64,000 nt of DNA, from NCBI GenBank assembly GCA_963778625.1, contig CAVZVB010000014.1:340849-404848 (forward strand). The letters run 5' to 3'. The notes beneath the pieces are model-generated. The model did not search any database. It had not been told where the DNA came from and saw only the letters and a program-made list of their open reading frames with translations. Below are positions 28,702-44,092 of the stretch, piece by piece. The stretch is from an uncultured Alphaproteobacteria bacterium. Lineage in GTDB: Bacteria > Pseudomonadota > Alphaproteobacteria > Rhizobiales > Afifellaceae. The first letter of the stretch is position 1; every line of letters begins with the position of its first letter. Both the position numbers and the translations under genes were made by a program.

Positions 28702-29561
28702 GCGCCTTTGTCCTATCGCTCATCGCCGCCAGAATCGAAGGCGCCGCTCGGCACCGCCCGACGTTGAAAGCGCGCGCGCAGCGCGCTCAAGCAAGCCGGT
28801 GCCGCACCCGGCGCGCCGGTGTGGCTTTCGGCCGGACGAGGCCTGCGACGATTCCCTTCGACGGCGATGCCGGCGCGGGCGCGCGACGCGGCGCGCGCCG
28901 CGCTTGCCGGCCGCCCGCTCGACGTGAACGTCGTCCGGCGGAAGACCGCCGCAAGAAGCTCCTCCTCGCCGACATGGATTCCACCATGATCGGGCAGGAA
29001 TGCATCGACGAGCTCGCGGCCGAGCGTGGGCCTGCGCGACGAGGTCGCGGCGATCACCGAGCGCGCCATGCGCGGCGAGATCGCCTTCGCGCCGGCGCTG
29101 CGCGAGCGCGTCGCGCTGCTGCGGGGCCTGCCGGCGAGCGTCGTCGGAAAGGTGCTCGCGACCCGGATCACCATCACGCCCGGCGCGACGCACGCTGGTC
29201 GCGACGATGCGCGCCGCGGGCGCGCACACGACGCTCGTCTCCGGCGGCTTCACCGCCTTCGTCGAGCCGGTGGCGCGGCGGATCGGCTTCGACGAGACGC
29301 GCGCGAACACGCTGCTTGCCGAGGGCGGACGTCTTCACTGGCGCGCGTCGCCGAGCCGATCCTCGGCGCGGAGGCGAAGGAGGCGGCGCTGCGCGGACGC
29401 TGACCGACGCGCTTGGCCTTGAGCCGGATGAGACGCTCGCCGTCGGCGACGGCGCCAACGACGCCGGCGATGGTGCGGCGCGCCGGGCTCGGCGTCGCCT
29501 ACCACGCCAAGCCGGCGCTGCGCGCCGTCGCCGACGCCGACGATCGACCACGCCGATCTGA
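28700..29561 (+). CDS. serB: phosphoserine phosphatase (multiply frameshifted; 5' end uncertain)
   Basis: Segments [106 protein letters not shown] and [17 protein letters not shown] lie in three frames. Confidence 0.75.
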
Positions 29562-29674
29562 GCGGAATACTTTTCCTGCAGGGCTTTTCCGCGCGAGGAG
29601 TTCGTCGGCGGCTAGCGCTGCCCCGCGACTTTTAAAGTCGGCCGAACGGAGGCCCACGACCAGCAACGCCGCGG

Positions 29675-31427
29675 CTACGGCGCGTCCTCGAAGCGCAGCG
29701 ACACGAAGCGCAGCTTGTTGTCGGTGCCGGAGACGAGCAGCATCACCGAGCGGCGGCCCTCCGACTTCAGCTCCTCGATGCGGGCGACCACGTCCTCCGG
29801 AGTCGAGACGTCGGGCTGGTTGACCTGCACGATGACCTCGCCGGGCTTCAGGCTCTTCGCCTCCGCCTCGCTGCCAGGATCGACGGCGGTCGACAAGCAC
29901 GCCTTCGACGCTGCCGTCGATCGAGAATGCCTTGCGCGCCTCGTCGGTGATCGCGCCGAGCGTCAGGCCGAACATCTGCGCCGCGTCGTCGGGCGGCGTC
30001 GCAGAGTCGCCCTGTTGCTCGCCCGGCGAAAGCGACGCCTTCTGCACCGGCTCGTCCTGCAACAGCCCGACCTCGATCGAGAGCGTGACGCGCTCGCCGT
30101 CGCGAATCACGACCAAGTCGACGGTGTCGCCGGGCGGCGTGTCGGCGACGAGCCGCGGCAGCGCGCGCATCGTGTCGACCTTCTTGCCGTTGAACTCGAC
30201 GACGACGTCGCCTTCCTTGATCGCCGGCCTTCGCCGCCGGACCGTCCGCCGTCATCCCGGCGATGAAGGCGCCCGTCGCGCGGTCCATGCCGAGCCCCTC
30301 GGCCACGTCGTCGGTCACGTCCTGGATGCGCACGCCGATCCAGCCGCGCCGGACCTCGCCGAAGCGGCGCAGCTGCTCGATAACCGGCACGGCGATCTCG
30401 GAGGGCACGGAGAAGCCGATGCCGATCGAGCCGCCGGTCGGCGACATGATCGCCGTGTTGATGCCGACCACCTCGCCTTCGATGTTGAAGAGCGGCCCGC
30501 CGGAATTGCCGCGGTTGATGGAGGCGTCGGTCTGGATGTAGTGGTCGTAGGGACCGGAATTGATGTCGCGGTCGAGCGCCGAGACGATGCCGGCGGTGAC
30601 CGTGCCGCCGAACCCGAACGGGTTGCCGATCGCCAGCACCCAGTCGCCGACGCGCAGCTTGTCGGAGCGGCCGAATTCCGCCGCCTTCAAGCGGCGTCGG
30701 CGAATCCACCTTGAGAAGCGCGAGGTCGGTCTTGTCGTCGATGCCGACGACCTTGGCTCCAGTTTCTCCGCCGTTGGCGAAGTTGGCGACGATCTCGTCG
30801 GCGTCGGCGATCACGTGGTTGTTGGTGACGATCAGGCCGGACGGATCGATGACGAAGCCGGAGCCGAGCGACTGCACCGCCTGCGCGCCGTCGCGCCGTT
30901 GTTGTTGTCGAAGAAGTTGTCGAAGAAATCGTCGCCCGGGGCGGCGTTCGGTGGCTTGTCCTGGCCATCCGGCGTGCCTTGGTCGCTCGGAGCGTCCTGG
31001 CTGTTCGGCGCGTCCGGCGTCGGCGTCCGCCGCGAAATGGCGACGCGCTGCGAGGTCGAGATATAGACGACGGAGTCGAGCAGCTGCTCGGCGAGATCGG
31101 CGAAGGAGAAGACCGCGCCGTTGCTGGCGACGGGGATGCCGGGAGCGACCGACGTCGCCGCCCTCTCCGTCGGTTCCTCCTGGGCGGGAGGGTGACAACA
31201 GGATTGTCGCCCGGCAAGTGCGGCGCCGGCAGGATCGGCGGCGGCGGCGTGGTGGCTTCGGCCGGGGCGGCAGGCTCCGTCGCCGGCGGCTCGCTCTGCT
31301 GCACGGGGATCGCCCGCGCATGGGGGCGCAAGCCTTGCCACGGCCCGGCCGGCGCCGCCATTGCCGACACCGAGGCCGCGATCAGCCCGACCGCCAGGGC
31401 CCCCCGCCAGATCAAACCAAAGCTCAT
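29675..31427 (-). CDS. degP: periplasmic serine endoprotease DegP/DegQ (Do family, 2 PDZ) (multiply frameshifted)
   Basis: Signal peptide [24 protein letters not shown], a trypsin-like core ([18 protein letters not shown] ... [16 protein letters not shown] ... [21 protein letters not shown]) and two PDZ segments, spread over at least five ORF-track frames. Confidence 0.85.
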
Positions 31428-31693: not shown

Positions 31694-32807
31694 TGCGCCG
31701 GAGCGGGAGCGGCAGGTGCCGGCGCTCCGTCGGAGGCGCGGCGGTTCTGCCGCAGGCGTGGGCGGTTCTGCCGCAGGTGCCGGCGCCTCAGCGGCAGGCG
31801 CGGTCTCCGTAGAAGCTCCTTCGGTGCCGGTGCCGGCGCTGGGCTCTGCGGGCGCATTTTCAGGCGTGCCGGCTTCCGCCGGCATGCTCTCGGACGTGCC
31901 TCCTGAACCAGGCGCGGCACCACCGCTCGCGGTCGCGCCGGCGCGGTCGCTCTTGAAGAAGCGGAAGAACTCCGAGTCGGGCGAGAGGACGAGCGAGGTG
32001 TTGTTCGCCGGCAGCGCCTGCTCGTAGGCCCGCATCGAGCGATAAAACTCGAAGAAGGACGGATCGCGCTGATAGGCCTCGGCGAAGATGCGGCTGCGCT
32101 CCGCGTCGCCCTGGCCGCGCAGGATTTCCGCCTCGCGCTCCGCCTCCGCCACCGTCACCACCGCCTCGCGGTCGGCTTCGGCGCGGATGCGGGCGGCAAG
32201 CTCGGTGCCGCGGGCGCGAAGCTGCGCCGCCTCGGCCAGGCGCTCGGCGCGCATGCGCTCGAATGTCTGCTGCGACACTTCCGGCAGAAGGTCGGTGCGC
32301 TTGATGCGAACGTCGACGACCTCGATGCCGACTTCCGCGGTCAGCGGACGCAGCTGGTCCCTGACCTCCAGCATCATCTCGCCGCGCTGCTCCGAAAGCG
32401 CCGCCTCGAAGCTGCGCTGGCCGTAGACGCGGCGCAGCGCCGCGTCGAGCCGGGTGCGCATGTTCTCGCGCGCGATATCGAGGCTGCCCGACACGTTCTC
32501 GCGGAACTTGCGCGGGATCGGTGATCTTGAAGGCGACGAAGGCGTCGACGATGTAGCGCCGGCCGTCGCGCACCTGCACGCGGATGTCCTCAAGGTCGAA
32601 GCTGAGCAGCCGGTTCTCGATGATCTGAACCGTGTCGACGAAGTTCGTGGGCAGCTTGAAATAGATGCCGGGCTTCTGGATGACGCGCGTGATCTCGCCG
32701 AAGCGCAAGACCAGCGCCTGCTCGCGCGGATTGACGATGAAGACCGACGAATAGACGAGGAAGGCGACGATCGCGAGACCGATCAGGAGGATGGAAGCGC
32801 GTCTCAT
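31690..32807 (-). CDS. hflC: protease modulator HflC (frameshifted)
   Basis: N-terminus MRRASILLIGLAIVAFLVYSSVFIVNPREQALVLRFGEITRV in ORF 31860..34322. SPFH core in ORF 31508..32593. C-terminal Ala/Pro-rich tail ending ...PAPAPAQ* in ORF 31690..31923. Confidence 0.85.
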
Positions 32808-33925
32808 TGGCCCGCTCCCGTCTGTGCCTGGGTGCCGCTCGCGGGCGCCGACTGGCGCGGTCGGCGCCGGCCTGTTCCGCTGCAGCTGATCGAGCGGCAG
32901 ATAGGGAAGCACGCCGGATCCGCCCTCCAGGATGATCTTGTTGGAATTGCGGAACACCTTTTCCATCGTCTCCAGATAGAGACGGGTGCGGGTCACGTCC
33001 TTGGCCTGCTCGTATTCGGTGAGGACCGAGAGGAAGCGCTGCGATTCGCCTTCCGCCTCGGCCACGACCTGCTGCTTGTAGCCCTGCGCCGTCTCCGTCA
33101 CCTGCGCCGCCTCGCCGCGCGCGTCGCCGAGCCGCTTGTTGGCGTATTGCTCGGCCTCGCGCTGGAAGCGGTCGAGGTCCTGCTGCGCGCGCTGCACCTC
33201 CTCGAACGCGTCGGCGACTTCGGCCGGCGGATCGGCGCGCTCAAGCTGCACGCCGACGATGGAGATGCCGGCGTCGTAAGTGTCGAGCGTCTTTTGAAGC
33301 AGTTCGCGAACGCCCTCTTCCACCTCGGCGCGGCGCTCGGTGCGCACTTCTTCCGCGGTCGAGCGGCCGACAAGCTCGCGCATGGCGCTTTCCGCCACGC
33401 GGCGCAGGAACGCGTCCGGCTCGTTGACGTCGAACAGATACTTCTTCGGATCGCTCACCCGCCACAGCACCGAGAAATTGATGTCGACGATGTTCTGGTC
33501 GCCGGAGAGCATCAGGCTGGTGTCGGTGGCGTTGCGGCGCGCGGCGTCGGAGCCGAAGAACTCGCGCTGCACGCGCGTGGAGACCTTCTCGACGGTCTCC
33601 ACCGGCCAGAAGATGAAATGCAGGCCCTGCGTCGCGACCCCTGCTTCGGCTTGCCGAAGACGAGCTCCTGACCGAGCTCGTCCGGCTGCACCATGTAGAG
33701 GCTGTTGAAGGCCCAGACGAGGACGAGCGCCAGGACGATGAGCACGCCGACGAGCGCGTTGCTGCGCCCGCCGCCCGGAAGCACGTTGCGCAGCCGATCC
33801 TGGCTGCGCTTCAAAAGCTCTTCGAGATCGGGCGGCTGCGGGCCCCGTTGCTGCGGACCCCCGCCCCACGGCCCTCCGCCTCCACCTTTCCAGCCGCCCC
33901 CGCCGGAATTGTTGCTCCAGGGCAT
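32804..33925 (-). CDS. hflK: protease modulator HflK (frameshifted)
   Basis: Gly-rich N-terminus MPWSNNSGGGGWKGGGGGPWGGGPQQ followed by a TM helix (ORF 33512..33925). SPFH core in the 820-aa ORF. The inferred stop (QTGAGQ*) overlaps the hflC ATG. Confidence 0.85.
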
Positions 33926-34564: not shown

Positions 34565-34975
34565 TCATGCCGGAGCCGTCCACACCCTCAACGCGCTGTG
34601 GGCGGCAATCCGTTTGAAATCGCCGTCACTCGTCAGCATCGCGAGGTCGTGTCGGATGCACAACTCAGCCAGTAGCGCGTCGATCGTGCCAATCTGAATG
34701 CCGCTCCGCCGGCAGCGATTTCGCAGCTCCGCCGCGCGGGCGTGGTCGTCACGGTCGGGCGTGAGAAATGGGACGGCAGAGAACCGGTCGAGAATCTGGT
34801 CGCGCGCTTTTGGCCCCGCGAACCCTTGCAGGAGTTCCTGAAGGACGAGCCCCGTCGTCACGATCGTGTCGCCAGCTTCGATTGCCCCGACGAGCGCACC
34901 GACCTCCGCGCCGTGGGCAGGCGCGTCCCGCCGAAAGGCGAGGGACCAGACGCTCGTGTCGACGAACAGGCTCAA
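34565..34975 (-). CDS. vapC: type II toxin VapC (PIN domain)
   Basis: MSLFVDTSVWSLAFRR...QELLQG...TIDALLAEL...LTSDGDFKRI carries the PIN acidic residues (D6, E, D, D). It overlaps vapB by 4 nt. Confidence 0.85.
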   Translation of the reverse strand: MSLFVDTSVWSLAFRRDAPAHGAEVGALVGAIEAGDTIVTTGLVLQELLQGFAGPKARDQILDRFSAVPFLTPDRDDHARAAELRNRCRRSGIQIGTIDALLAELCIRHDLAMLTSDGDFKRIAAHSALRVWTAPA

Positions 34976-35172
34976 TTGCGCGTGCGTTCCGCGCGGTAGT
35001 CATAAGACTCGTCCCACTCGAGCTTGCCCATCAGGTCGAGGAGGCGCTTCTGTCGCCGACGCGCGATGAACTCTTGCAGCGCCTTTGTGACAGCTGCCTT
35101 TTTCGTGCGCTCCCCGCTGACCTCAAGCGCTCTTTCGATCAGTCCGGGATCAATGGACAGATTCGTCGCCAT
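34972..35172 (-). CDS. vapB: type II antitoxin VapB
   Basis: Internal start MATNLSIDPGLIERALEVSGERTKKAAVTKALQEFIARRRQKRLLDLMGKL..., 66 aa, directly upstream of vapC. Confidence 0.75.
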   Translation of the reverse strand: MATNLSIDPGLIERALEVSGERTKKAAVTKALQEFIARRRQKRLLDLMGKLEWDESYDYRAERTRN

Positions 35173-35253
35173 GTGTGAACCTCCACACATACAATCGCAC
35201 ATGTTCCAGCTTGGGCGCAATGCAAGTGGCGTGCGCCAGCGGCCGCTTCAAGG

Positions 35254-36048
35254 CTACGCCGAGACCTCCGCCTTGATGTGCGGATGCGGGTCGTAGCCGA
35301 GAAGCTCGAAGTCGCCGTAGACGAAGTCGAAGATGCGGTGGACCTCCGGGTTGAGCCGCATCGTCGGCAGCTTGCGCGGCTCGCGGCTCAATTGCTCGCG
35401 CGCCTGCTCGAGGTGATTCAGATAGAGATGCGCGTCGCCGAAGGTGTGCACGAAGTCGCCCGGCTTCAGCCCGGTCACCTGCGCCACCATCATCGTCAGC
35501 AGCGCATAGGAGGCGATGTTGAAGGGCACGCCGAGGAAGATGTCGGCGGAGCGCTGGTAGAGCTGGCAGGAGAGCTTCCCTTCCGCGACGTAGAACTGGA
35601 ACAGGCAATGGCAGGGCGCCAGCGCCATCTTGTCGATGTCGGCCGGGTTCCAGGCGGTGACGATCAGGCGGCGCGAATCCGGGTTCTTGCGGATTGCCGC
35701 AACGACATCGGAAATCTGGTCGATGACGCGGCCGTCGGGCGCAGCCCAGGAGCGCCACTGCTTGCCGTAGATCGGCCCGAGGTCGCCGTTCTCGTCCGCC
35801 CATTCGTCCCAGATGCGGACGCCGTTCTCTTTCAGGGTGCGGATGTTGGTGTCGCCGGCGAGGAACCACAGAAGCTCGTGGATGATCGACTTCACGTGCA
35901 GCTTCTTGGTGGTGACGAGCGGGAAGCCGTCGGCCAGGTCGAAGCGCATCTGGTGGCCGAAGACGGAAAGCGTGCCGGTGCCGGTCCGGTCGGATTTTTC
36001 GACGCCGTCGTCGAGCACGCGGCGGAGGAGATCGAGATATTGGCGCAT
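35254..36048 (-). CDS. thyA: thymidylate synthase
   Basis: [68 protein letters not shown]..., 264 aa, intact. Confidence 0.95.
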
Positions 36049-36194
36049 CGGGGGAAATGTAGTGCGATTCCCGTCGTCCGCCTATTCGGGCAGCGCCCAA
36101 CGCGAGAAGATCGGGGAAACCAGCCCAGGCCGTGCCGCTTTTAATGGCGGCCGGAAAACCTTATATTCCCAGGTGCCGGGGCAACCCGGCTATG

Positions 36195-36545
36195 GCGATA
36201 AACGGGCTACGTAATAAACCTATCGGACCCGGGGGCAGTACCCGGCGCCTCCACCATGAACCCTGCTTCGCGAAAGCTTCGCAGGGCTGATGATGGGGGC
36301 GAAACAGGATCGACGAGGGCGTAAAGGTCGCTTTTTCGCTCGGTATGGTACCCGCCGTTATCGGGCCAAACATATAGTTGCAAATGACAACTATGCTCCG
36401 GTGGCCCTCGCCGCGTAAGCGGTCTGGGTATCGGAATTCAAGCCCTGAGGGGTAGCACTTTCAGGCGGGGTTCGGAGGCACCTGGCAACAGAAGCCTCCA
36501 CTTCCCCTCCCTGGCTTGTTGCAAGCGCGCGAAGCTGCCACTACG
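36195..36545 (+). ncRNA. ssrA: two-piece (circularly permuted) tmRNA gene
   Basis: Acceptor piece ends ...CCGGGGGCAGTACCCGG-CGCCTCC-ACCA (T-arm, 3' acceptor strand, encoded CCA at ~36253-36255). A ~38-nt hairpin spacer follows. The coding piece starts GGGGGCG (pairs with CGCCTCC) AAACAGGATCGACGAGGG (~36294). Tag reading frame GCA AAT GAC AAC TAT GCT CCG GTG GCC CTC GCC GCG TAA = ANDNYAPVALAA* (36380-36418). Confidence 0.75.
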
Positions 36546-36554
36546 TTCGCGCCG

Positions 36555-37052
36555 ATGGCAGAAGACCTGATCCGCTACGACGTGCTCGTGCAGGAGGCGC
36601 TGCGCGGCGTCGTCAAGAAGGTGCTGACGGAAGTGGCGCAGGCCGGGCTTCCGGGCGAGCACCATTTCTTCGTGACGTTCGACGCGCTTATCCGGGCGTG
36701 CGCATCTCGCCGCGGCTCATCGCCGAATATCCGCACGAGATGACGGTGGTGCTGCAGCACCAGTTCTGGGACCTCGCCGTGCACCGATGCCGCCTTCGAG
36801 GTGGGGCTCTCGTTCAAGGGCGTGCCGGAGACGCTCTACGTGCCGTTCCGCGCCATCTCGAGCTTCGTCGACCCGCATGCCGGCTTCCAGGTGAAGTTCG
36901 ACACGACGCCCGATGCCGCGGTGCTGGAGGCGGTCGAGGAAGACGCCGTCCCGCCGCCGCCTCCGGCGAAGGAAGGCGAAGAGGCGCCGGCAGCCGATCC
37001 CGGCACGGCCGACGTCGTCTCGCTCGACGCCTTCCGCAAGAAGAACGGCTGA
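36555..37052 (+). CDS. sspB: ClpXP adaptor SspB (alpha-proteobacterial type) (two frameshifts)
   Basis: [43 protein letters not shown] (ORF 36516), [18 protein letters not shown] (ORF 36698) and [33 protein letters not shown]...DAFRKKNG (ORF 36801). Confidence 0.8.
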
Positions 37053-37152: not shown

Positions 37153-38547
<1,395 letters not shown>

Positions 38548-38550
38548 CCC

Positions 38551-38746
38551 ATGAGCGATATCGTCAACCTGCGCCATGCATCGCAAGCGCAAGCGCCGCG
38601 CCGAGAAGGACGTCGCCGCAGATGCGAACCGGCTCACGCATGGCCGGCCCAAAGCCGAAACGGTGAAAGCCAAGCTGGTCCGCGCGCTTGACGAGAAGCG
38701 CCTCGATATGCATCGCCGCGCGGCGGACGAGGACGAGCGCGGCTGA
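38551..38746 (+). CDS. DUF4169-family small protein (frameshift after codon ~8)
   Basis: ATG at 38551 gives MSDIVNLR, then a +1 frame shift gives [56 protein letters not shown]. Below the ORF-track size cutoff. Confidence 0.55.
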
Positions 38747-38755
38747 AAGCGCAAA

Positions 38756-38974
38756 ATGATCCGCAAACGCTCCGTCAAGCTCAACGGGCACGCGACGAGC
38801 GTCTCGCTCGAGGACGAATACTGGGGCGAGCTGAAGCGCATGGCGGACGGACGCGGCGTTTCGCTTGCGGAGCTGATCGTGCGGATCGACGCGGCGCGGG
38901 CGGGCGACAATCTCTCCTCCGCGCTGCGGCTCGCGGTGCTCGCGGATCTGAAGGACCCGCCTACCGGATCTTGA
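38756..38974 (+). CDS. ribbon-helix-helix domain protein
   Basis: MIRKRSVKLNGHATSVSLEDEYWGELKRMADGRGVSLAELIVRIDAARAGDNLSSALRLAVLADL, of the type commonly found next to DUF4169 genes. Confidence 0.6.
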   Translation: MIRKRSVKLNGHATSVSLEDEYWGELKRMADGRGVSLAELIVRIDAARAGDNLSSALRLAVLADLKDPPTGS

Positions 38975-41900: not shown

Positions 41901-42691
41901 CCAGGGCGAACGGGGCGTCTCCGAATTCAAGGGCTCAATGCCGGCGACGGTGGCGGTGCCCTCGTATTTCGGCGGCTCACCGGCAGCGAGCGCGAGCTTG
42001 CCGTCGGTCGCCAGCGTCACCGGATAATCGGGCGAGCGGACGGTGGCCTTGGCGGTCACGACGCCATCGGCAAAGCGGCCGAAGGCGACGCTCAGCGACA
42101 TCGGCTCGCCGTCGAGCTTCAAATCGGCCTCCAGCTTGCCGGGGCCCATCAGCGTGCTCGCCTCGACCGTGGCGTCGATGCCCTCGGCGTTCCATTCCTC
42201 ACCGCTGCGGCTGTCGATGATCGTCGCGCTCCCCTCGGCGATCTCCAGCCGCTCAAGCGAAATCTGCTCCGCGTCCACCCGCCACGCGCCGGCGAGCGCC
42301 TCGTGCCCTTCGGCGAGGCTGGCGACATCGAAATGGAAGACCGGCCGCTCCAATGTCATGTGGATGACGCGGACCTGGCCGCGCAGCAGCGGCGCCAGCT
42401 CGACCTCGGCGCGGAAGCGCTCCATCTTCACGTCCGGCGCCGCCGGGTCGCCGACATTGACGTCGGTGAAGCTCAAGACCGGCGTCGGCAACAGCCGCAC
42501 GCTTGCCTTGCCGGCGACGGTGACGGGCCGCCCGACATAGGCTGAGGCTTCGCGCTCGAATGTCTGCCGATAAGACGTCCAGTCGACGAAATGCGGCCCG
42601 ATCAGAGCCGTGAAAAGGATCACGATGATGAGACTGCCGGCAATGATGAAGAACTTGCTCAGCTCAATCTCTCCTTCGGCGGCCTAGGCCG
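38961..42691 (-). CDS. AsmA-family outer-membrane biogenesis protein (~1240 aa)
   Basis: ORF 38961..42623: N-terminal TM helix (...[25 protein letters not shown]), a long beta-rich repetitive body, and a Pro/Ala/Thr-rich C-terminal linker before [14 protein letters not shown]. The probable ATG at ~42689 lies in an adjacent frame. Confidence 0.8.
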
Positions 42692-44092
42692 TCAGTCGCA
42701 TGATCTTCCCCGGGTTCATGATGTTCAGGGGGTCGATCGCCGTCTTGATCGCGCGCATCACGCCAAGCGCCGAGCCGGCCTCGGTTTCGAGAAACTCCAT
42801 CTTGCCCTGGCCGATCCCGTGCTCGCCCGTGCAGGTGCCGTCCATCGCGATGGCGCGCTCGGCAAGCCGTCTATGAGCTCCTCGGCCGCGTGCATCTCGG
42901 CCGCATCGTTCGGGTCGACGAGCACCTGGACATGGAAATTGCCGTCGCCGACATGGCCCACGATCGGCGCAAGCAGGTTCAGACGCGCCAGATCCGCCTG
43001 AGTCTCGGCGACACAGTCGGCGAGCCGCGAAATCGGCACGCAGGCATCGGTGGCGAAGATCGTGGCGCCGGGCCTGAGCCCCTTCACCGCGAAATAGGCG
43101 TCGTGGCGCGCCTGCCAGAGCTTCTGGCGATCCTCCTCGCGGGTTTCCCAGAGAAAACGGTCGCCGCCGAATTCCGCGGCGATCGCGCCGAACTCCTCCG
43201 CCTGCTCCTTCACGCCCGCCGGCGTCCCGTGGAACTCCAGGAAGAGCGCGGGGCTCTCCGGCAAATCGAGATGCGAGTAAGTGTTGCTGGCCCTGACCTG
43301 CAACGCGTCGAGCAGCTCGATCCGCGCCATCGGGATGCCGTACTGGATCGTCGCAATGACGGTTCGGCAGGCCGACTCGACGTCCGGGAAGCTGCACACG
43401 GCAGCGGAGATCGCCTGCGGGATTCCCTGCAGGCGGAGCGTCAGCTCGGTGATGATAGCGAGCGTTCCCTCCGACCCGATCAGAAGCCGCGTCAGGTCGT
43501 AGCCGGCGGCGGTCTTCTTGGCGCGGTTCGCGGTCTTCACCAGCGAGCCGTCGGGCATCACCGCCGTCAGGTTCAAGACGTTGTCCTTCATGGTGCCGTA
43601 GCGCACGGCGTTGGTGCCGGAGGCGCGCGTCGCGGCCATGCCGCCGAGACTCGCGTCGGCACCGGGATCGATCGGGAAGAACAACCCCTGGTCGCGAAGA
43701 TACGCGTTCAGCTGTTTCCGCGTCACCCCCGGCTCGACCACGCAGTCGAGATCCTCCGCATGCACGGCGACGATGCGGTTCATGCGCGACAGGTCGACCG
43801 AGACGCCGCCGAAAGGCGCGTTCAAATGCCCCTCGAGCGACGAGCCGACGCCGAACGGGACGATCGGCGTGCGATGGTCGGCGCAGACGCGCACGATGTC
43901 CTGCACCTCCTCTGCGCTTTCGACGAAGATTACCGCGTCGGGCGGCTGGTTCGTGAGCCAGGTTGTGGTGTGGCCATGCTGCTCGCGCACAGACGCCGCC
44001 TCGGAGAGGCGATCGCCGAACCGTTGCTTCAAGACCGAGATCGCAACTGCAGTTCTGTCTTCGTCGCGCTTTGCCGCTGCGGCCAACGTCAT
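42684..44092 (-). CDS. FAD-linked oxidase (D-lactate dehydrogenase/GlcD family) (frameshift ~42880)
   Basis: [45 protein letters not shown]... with FAD_binding_4 (ORF 42758..44143) and C-terminal ...[24 protein letters not shown] (ORF 42684..43397). Confidence 0.8.

Follow-up and report, generated by a model that had tools for sequence, protein, structure and literature searches.

A probable circularly permuted ssrA gene of the usual alphaproteobacterial form, followed by sspB, in a window rich in indel errors

The stretch of DNA analysed here (64 kb, referred to below as the window) carries between 36 and 37 kb what looks like a tmRNA gene with its halves in permuted order, followed by a gene for a proteolysis adaptor whose reading frame is broken. 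This raises the question of whether the locus is an ordinary ssrA gene beside sspB, or whether the arrangement, the broken frame or the RNA itself departs from what is known. We consider the locus, with a probability of about 93%, to be a normal alphaproteobacterial ssrA in circularly permuted form, followed by sspB. The tmRNA genes of Alphaproteobacteria are circularly permuted and the two-piece RNA of Caulobacter is functional (reviews PMC3985003, PMC11915505); the two-piece tmRNA of Caulobacter crescentus goes back to Keiler, Shapiro and Williams (2000, as cited in PMC3985003). The two pieces of the Sinorhizobium meliloti tmRNA were measured as RNAs of 82 nt and 204 nt, the latter seen on Northern blots (Ulve et al. 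2007; PMC2245857).

ARAGORN, run on the whole 64-kb window, reports one tmRNA (36164-36509, plus strand) and gives it the flag for a permuted gene (tmRNA with an asterisk). The Rfam family alpha_tmRNA (RF01849, cut-off 50 bits) matches positions 36135-36502 with 313.6 bits (E 1.2e-90) over model positions 1-355 of 355, and an overlapping match to tmRNA_permuted (RF04321, cut-off 47 bits) covers positions 36194-36418 with 144.6 bits over model positions 1-213 of 213; both cut-offs are the curated gathering thresholds, and no other Rfam family exceeds its threshold in the window. The tmRNA match is far beyond chance, and the permuted flag and the full-length RF01849 match bear out the circularly permuted ssrA proposed in the initial annotation.

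The permuted order is visible in the sequence and in the ARAGORN model, as the encoded ACCA lies upstream of both the 5' acceptor strand and the tag frame (Table 1). Each RNA part named at the outset was found at its position in the sequence, by ARAGORN and by Rfam. GGGGGCG and CGCCTCC pair to join the two pieces in a 7-bp acceptor stem, whose third pair is G-U (G3-U70). This pair is the alanine identity element. The spacer between the pieces differs freely in length and sequence between relatives in the alignment, which is the expectation for a discarded segment.

Table 1. Features of the ssrA-sspB locus and related positions (window coordinates unless a contig is named).
Feature	Coordinates	Strand	Evidence or remark
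thyA, 264 aa, intact ORF	35254..36048	-	Pfam Thymidylat_synt, 429.7 bits; same position in L001
Putative ssrA promoter: -35-like CTTTTA (36138-36143), 17-nt spacer, -10 TTATAT (36161-36166)	36138..36166	+	proposed from sequence
5' hairpin of acceptor piece (GCCGG / loop / CCGGC)	36175..36190	+	Rfam consensus structure
Acceptor piece core: 5' strands of long P2 helix, T-arm, acceptor strand, ACCA	36194..36256	+	
T-arm: CCGGG (36229-36233), loop GGCAGTA (36234-36240), CCCGG (36241-36245)	36229-36245	+	
3' acceptor strand CGCCTCC	36246-36252	+	
Encoded ACCA	36253-36256	+	
Intervening spacer, 38 nt, hairpin CCCTGC...GCAGGG	36257..36294	+	between CCA and coding-piece G1
Coding piece, ~208 nt	36295..36502	+	ARAGORN, Rfam
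5' acceptor strand GGGGGCG, start of coding piece	36295-36301	+	
Contents of coding piece after acceptor strand: P2 3' strands, pseudoknot region, tag frame, 3' domain			
Tag frame GCA AAT GAC AAC TAT GCT CCG GTG GCC CTC GCC GCG TAA, encoding ANDNYAPVALAA and stop	36380..36418	+	ARAGORN
3' domain of coding piece: terminal hairpin GGAGGC...GCCTCC	ends at 36502	+	
Promoter-like TTGCAA-N16-CTACGT, 8 nt before sspB ATG	36519..36546	+	proposed from sequence
sspB (SspB-alpha type ClpXP adaptor), 165 aa after repair	36555..37052	+	Pfam, homologues, PDB matches
Split gene miaA	27771-28662		
Split gene, HAD hydrolase	28732-29587		
Split gene, 587-aa protein	29678-31427		
Split gene hflC	31817-32807		
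Split gene hflK	32856-33925		
Split gene fumC	37153-38547		
Split gene, FAD-oxidase	42687-43375		
14-nt copy GAAGCCTCCACTTC	L003 9939-9952; L002 9938-9951; L004 5651-5664		

The fold of the tRNA-like half was examined in 54 sequences, comprising the window and 53 non-redundant relatives, onto which the Rfam consensus structure was projected. In this projection of an Rfam structure onto a MAFFT alignment, standard pairs occupy 93.3% of cells, compared with 38-56% (maximum 56.4%) after a shift of the 3' partners by one to three columns, and 16 of the 35 pairs show changes on both sides. The observed value was reached by none of 500 shuffles on four of five measures and by 4 of 500 on the fifth. 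The covariation is located in the 5' hairpin (helix 1, 96.7% of cells paired, compensatory changes in four of five pairs) and in the P2 helices joining the two pieces (helices 2-4, changes on both sides in 12 of 18 pairs). The pairs of the T-arm are invariant across the 54 sequences; the acceptor helix is 98.4% paired and its G-U pair is present in all 54 (columns 98/177, as U-G). Whether a covariance model could fold both pieces had been raised as a point on which the two-piece gene would stand or fall, and the full-length Rfam match and the covariation both favour a tmRNA.

The tag frame opens with an alanine resume codon (GCA) and closes with CTC GCC GCG TAA, a hydrophobic-Ala-Ala degron followed by the stop. 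The peptide that the initial annotation had read directly from the sequence, ANDNYAPVALAA, is the one returned by ARAGORN, and it is identical in at least four relatives (L001, L005, L008 and L031), including the closest one (L001). Extrapolating from studies of Caulobacter, Sinorhizobium and E. coli, we infer the processing sites, the tagging, the adaptor function and the promoter positions of this locus. A single precursor would be transcribed, probably from the CTATAT-type promoter near 36161-36166, and tRNA-processing enzymes would remove the 38-nt spacer, leaving an acceptor piece of ~85 nt that ends in CCA and a coding piece of ~208 nt that begins with GGGGGCG. The pieces would be held together by base pairing in the acceptor stem and the long P2 helix. 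Charged with alanine and joined by SmpB, the complex would enter stalled ribosomes and add the tag; SspB would then bind the N-terminal ANDNY part of the tag, and its conserved C-terminal tail (10 residues) would tether the substrate to ClpX, which would recognise the terminal LAA.

The RNA shares with the two-piece tmRNAs of Caulobacter and S. meliloti the order of acceptor piece, spacer and coding piece, the encoded CCA, G3-U70, the 5-bp T-arm with its 7-nt loop and the long P2, as well as a tag with an ANDN start and an LAA end. The predicted pieces of ~85 and ~208 nt compare with S. meliloti values of 82 and 204 nt. What differs from the known two-piece tmRNAs are tag residues 5-10 (YAPVAL) and the 38-nt spacer, both lineage-specific variants; there is no difference of kind.

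The downstream gene was identified from a translation repaired at two interruptions of its frame, and only this repaired translation gives a full SspB match. It matches the Pfam family SspB (PF04386, gathering score 27) with 155.7 bits over residues 11-146, is 91% identical end to end to its best database homologue (P0001), and aligns over its full length with 13 homologues, all of which begin with MAEDLIRYD or a variant of one or two residues. In a PDB search it matches 2NYS (Agrobacterium AGR_C_3712p, 161 bits, E 2.4e-46, residues 1-163) and the Caulobacter SspB structures 2QAS (113 bits, E 1.5e-31) and 2QAZ (E 6.2e-30). The C-terminal 12 residues (V154-G165) are invariant in 14 homologues and align to the C-terminus of 2NYS, and the acidic, proline-containing linker (residues ~118-150) varies in sequence and length in all homologues. 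By these matches the gene is an SspB-alpha homologue, and the initial annotation was right to place sspB-alpha next to the tmRNA. SspB-alpha was reportedly described by Lessner et al. (2007, J Bacteriol 189:272, cited in PMC3985003 and PMC8138137) as the alphaproteobacterial ClpXP adaptor for tmRNA-tagged proteins, and later work (Chowdhury et al. 2010) is said to have found that its C-terminal tail binds the N domain of ClpX. The protein in the window shares with the SspB-alpha of Caulobacter and Agrobacterium the Pfam SspB domain and the place of its gene directly downstream of ssrA, and with 2NYS the invariant C-terminal 10-residue tail; it differs from known SspB-alpha in the divergent linker (~118-150) and in the two interruptions of the frame, which we judge to be sequence error.

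The distance between the two genes had been given as about 10 nt. The ATG at 36555 lies 53 nt past the Rfam end of the tmRNA (36502) and 46 nt past the ARAGORN end (36509), so that the real gap, taken from the Rfam end, is 53 nt. An in-frame TTG at 36516 would restore a gap of ~10 nt; it was rejected as the start since the homologues are 163-170 aa long and begin at MAEDLIRYD. The region delimited at the outset ends at 37052, the last base of the sspB stop codon (37050-37052).

Upstream of the tmRNA, thyA diverges on the minus strand, as had been noted; beyond it lie a vapBC pair and folA. On the other side, sspB is followed by fumC, then by genes for a DUF4169 and an RHH protein, and by asmA. 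Gene order in L001, the closest relative, is likewise thyA-ssrA-sspB-fumC-asmA. We scanned one genome per GTDB species with an SspB alignment, which gave 80 loci, and searched these for tmRNA genes with ARAGORN. The loci are mostly from Hyphomicrobiales (Bradyrhizobium, Kaistia, Bauldia, Afifella, Stappia, Roseibium, Devosia, Methylobacterium and Acuticoccus), and the nearest ones are uncultured MAGs. A permuted tmRNA lies directly upstream of sspB and on the same strand in 75 of the 80 species-representative loci, at a distance of 20-1128 nt (median 110 nt), and all tags in those loci have the ANDN start and the hydrophobic-Ala-Ala end. Four of the five loci that lack a tmRNA are cut by contig ends and have less than 420 nt of upstream sequence. 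With a Caulobacter structure sequence as query, four Caulobacterales loci (two of them Caulobacter) were found to carry a tmRNA directly upstream of sspB with the published Caulobacter tag ANDNFAEEFAVAA. The same arrangement in Caulobacter makes the linkage older than the split of these orders. On this comparison of sequences, the ssrA-sspB adjacency is ancestral, a gene order that Hyphomicrobiales and Caulobacterales have inherited in common. The initial annotation had called the pair a tight functional unit: the adjacency holds, and the special status does not, as this is the normal alphaproteobacterial state (75 of 80 loci, and Caulobacter).

Among the 76 loci that could be assessed, a single one, that of Microvirga pudoricolor (L072, 1-4000), has no tmRNA despite 4 kb of sequence upstream of sspB.

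In E. coli, ssrA is a one-piece gene linked to smpB and not to sspB, which lies in the sspAB operon; the window differs in having a permuted ssrA beside sspB. The two systems follow the same pathway logic: the N-terminal part of the tag is bound by the adaptor and its LAA end by ClpX, and the adaptor belongs to the SspB family (review PMC8138137). Both genes flanking the tmRNA have been described as conserved in Alphaproteobacteria, and smpB of S. meliloti lies 1.1 Mb from ssrA (PMC2245857). The supplementary table of that study lists AGR_C_3711 and AGR_C_3712 as the flanks of the Agrobacterium tmRNA, the latter as the right flank. Since AGR_C_3712p is the 2NYS protein that matches SspB here, the adjacency has been in print since 2007, although not under the name sspB; a literature search for an explicit statement by name that sspB adjoins ssrA found none, only this 2007 synteny table with its locus tags. 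The ssrA-sspB locus is thus already known and an ordinary textbook arrangement. Its presence confirms that the contig carries the organism's trans-translation RNA and adaptor, which matters little beyond correct annotation, and across Hyphomicrobiales and Caulobacterales the pairing can be relied on as a marker of synteny.

How the two genes are expressed was approached through their upstream sequences. A scan for E. coli-type promoters between 35900 and 37300 found none, and the promoters proposed here were chosen by eye against the alphaproteobacterial consensus. The putative ssrA promoter resembles this consensus, quoted as (-35 box)-N17-CTATAT in PMC2245857, and a CTATAT/TTATAT box is conserved at its -10 position in nearly all of the 54 aligned sequences. 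Upstream of sspB, a TTGCAA-N16-CTA(C/G)GT motif that ends 7-8 nt before the ATG is conserved in L001, L003, L005, L006 and L007, and no Shine-Dalgarno sequence precedes the gene in the window (36519-36554). Together, the motif and the missing Shine-Dalgarno sequence suggest that in this clade sspB is transcribed from a promoter of its own into a leaderless mRNA. On balance we favour such an independent, possibly leaderless sspB transcript, with read-through from ssrA as a minority contribution.

The main competitor is that ssrA and sspB form one transcription unit, in which read-through of the precursor and 3' processing of the coding piece yield the sspB message, so that RNA and adaptor are made together. 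Wherever both genes are present (75 of 75 loci), they lie on one strand; here they are just 53 nt apart, and no terminator-like site lies between 36503 and 36555. What comes after the terminal hairpin of the tmRNA is ACTTCCCC and not a run of T. Against this, the TTGCAA-N16-CTA(C/G)GT motif stands before the ATG in the nearest relatives, among them L003, which has an intact sspB and lacks a tmRNA gene upstream, and gaps reach 1128 nt in other species. Moreover, tmRNA is a very abundant stable RNA, for which stoichiometric read-through would be unusual as a matter of general knowledge. We therefore think a single unit rather unlikely. It is more doubtful still that the near-universal same-strand linkage reflects an undescribed coupling of expression, whereby read-through would supply some of the sspB message, to be released by 3'-end processing. 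If such coupling were true, the level of the adaptor would track tmRNA synthesis, and the TTGCAA-N16-CTAGGT element would provide only a basal leaderless transcript.

In the window sspB is not one open frame, and the ORF list has no single frame for it. Three-frame translation follows the protein in frame 0 from 36555 to ~36686, then in frame 2 as far as 36784, and again in frame 0 from 36786 to 37052. DNA alignment with L001 and L003 places a 1-nt deletion at ~36685-36689 (GACGCGC-TTATCC in the window) and an extra C at 36784/36785 (GTGCACCGAT in the window versus GTGCA-CGAT). The 33 out-of-frame codons between the two indels still encode the conserved and invariant residues of the family.

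The window was then compared by tblastn with 14 proteins of the closest syntenic contig (L001). The matches to at least seven of the 14 are spread across two or three reading frames (miaA, a HAD hydrolase, a 587-aa protein, hflC, hflK, fumC and an FAD-oxidase); thyA, folA, DUF2065 and a CLC channel are intact. A blastn alignment of the window with L001 has 130 gap openings in ~18.8 kb, not all of which belong to the window, as L001 also comes from a metagenome and contains some errors itself (its FumC is fused to DUF4169). The rate of indels in coding sequence of the window is roughly one per 1-1.5 kb. Indels scattered through essential housekeeping genes that show no other decay are what an uncorrected long-read assembly typically leaves behind, and the pattern points to an error-rich, probably long-read assembly of the window. 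Because at least seven other genes are broken alike, we read the breaks in sspB as almost certainly errors of assembly and not gene decay.

That sspB is instead a genuine pseudogene, with the adaptor inactivated by two frameshifts and tagged proteins reaching ClpXP unaided, is very improbable: the starting frame as given does meet a stop at 36741-36743, and SspB is non-essential for degradation of tagged proteins (review PMC8138137), but the two indels, separated by 100 nt, have opposite signs, the shifted segment keeps the invariant residues of the family (a 19-residue stretch) without further decay, the housekeeping genes hflK, hflC, miaA and fumC are broken in the same way, and the closest relatives have intact 165-aa genes. 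Programmed frameshifting in sspB was also considered, and rejected in view of two opposite shifts 100 nt apart, relatives with a single frame and many unrelated genes broken alike. The recognition that the window is rich in indel errors is the most useful by-product of the analysis, and other apparent pseudogenes or split genes in it are likely assembly artefacts, to be treated as such.

In three related contigs (L002, L003 and L004; 20 kb of each examined) there is no tmRNA gene upstream of sspB, whose product is 83% identical. Each carries, 48 nt before the sspB ATG, an exact copy of a 14-nt tmRNA 3' end (GAAGCCTCCACTTC, identical to window positions 36491-36504). Such a copy is the pattern that a genomic island would leave on integrating into ssrA and displacing a 3' fragment. 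Phages and islands often carry fragments of tmRNA genes. The tmRNA-like sequence of the window could by the same token be a mobile-element remnant or decoy and not a working ssrA, given that tmRNA genes are often integration sites of islands that leave displaced fragments (PMC4383910) and that the related L003 has such a fragment beside sspB, but this is scarcely credible for a match that runs the full 355 positions of the model, keeps its tag frame, CCA and G-U pair intact, stands among housekeeping genes in conserved order, has no second copy above threshold in the 64-kb window by ARAGORN or Rfam, and has no integrase among the ORFs near 34.5-39.5 kb.

Two further observations concern the neighbourhood. 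The vapBC pair lies between folA and thyA on the minus strand (PIN 34975..34565, VapB 35220..34972); in L001, folA and thyA are directly adjacent with a gap of 65 nt, and the pair therefore looks like a recent insertion. Between fumC and asmA, the DUF4169 gene and the ribbon-helix-helix (RHH_4) gene occupy window positions 38551-38974 (11985-12428 in L002/L003). The pair is found in that place in all close relatives, with the DUF4169 frame of L001 fused to fumC, probably by a contig error.
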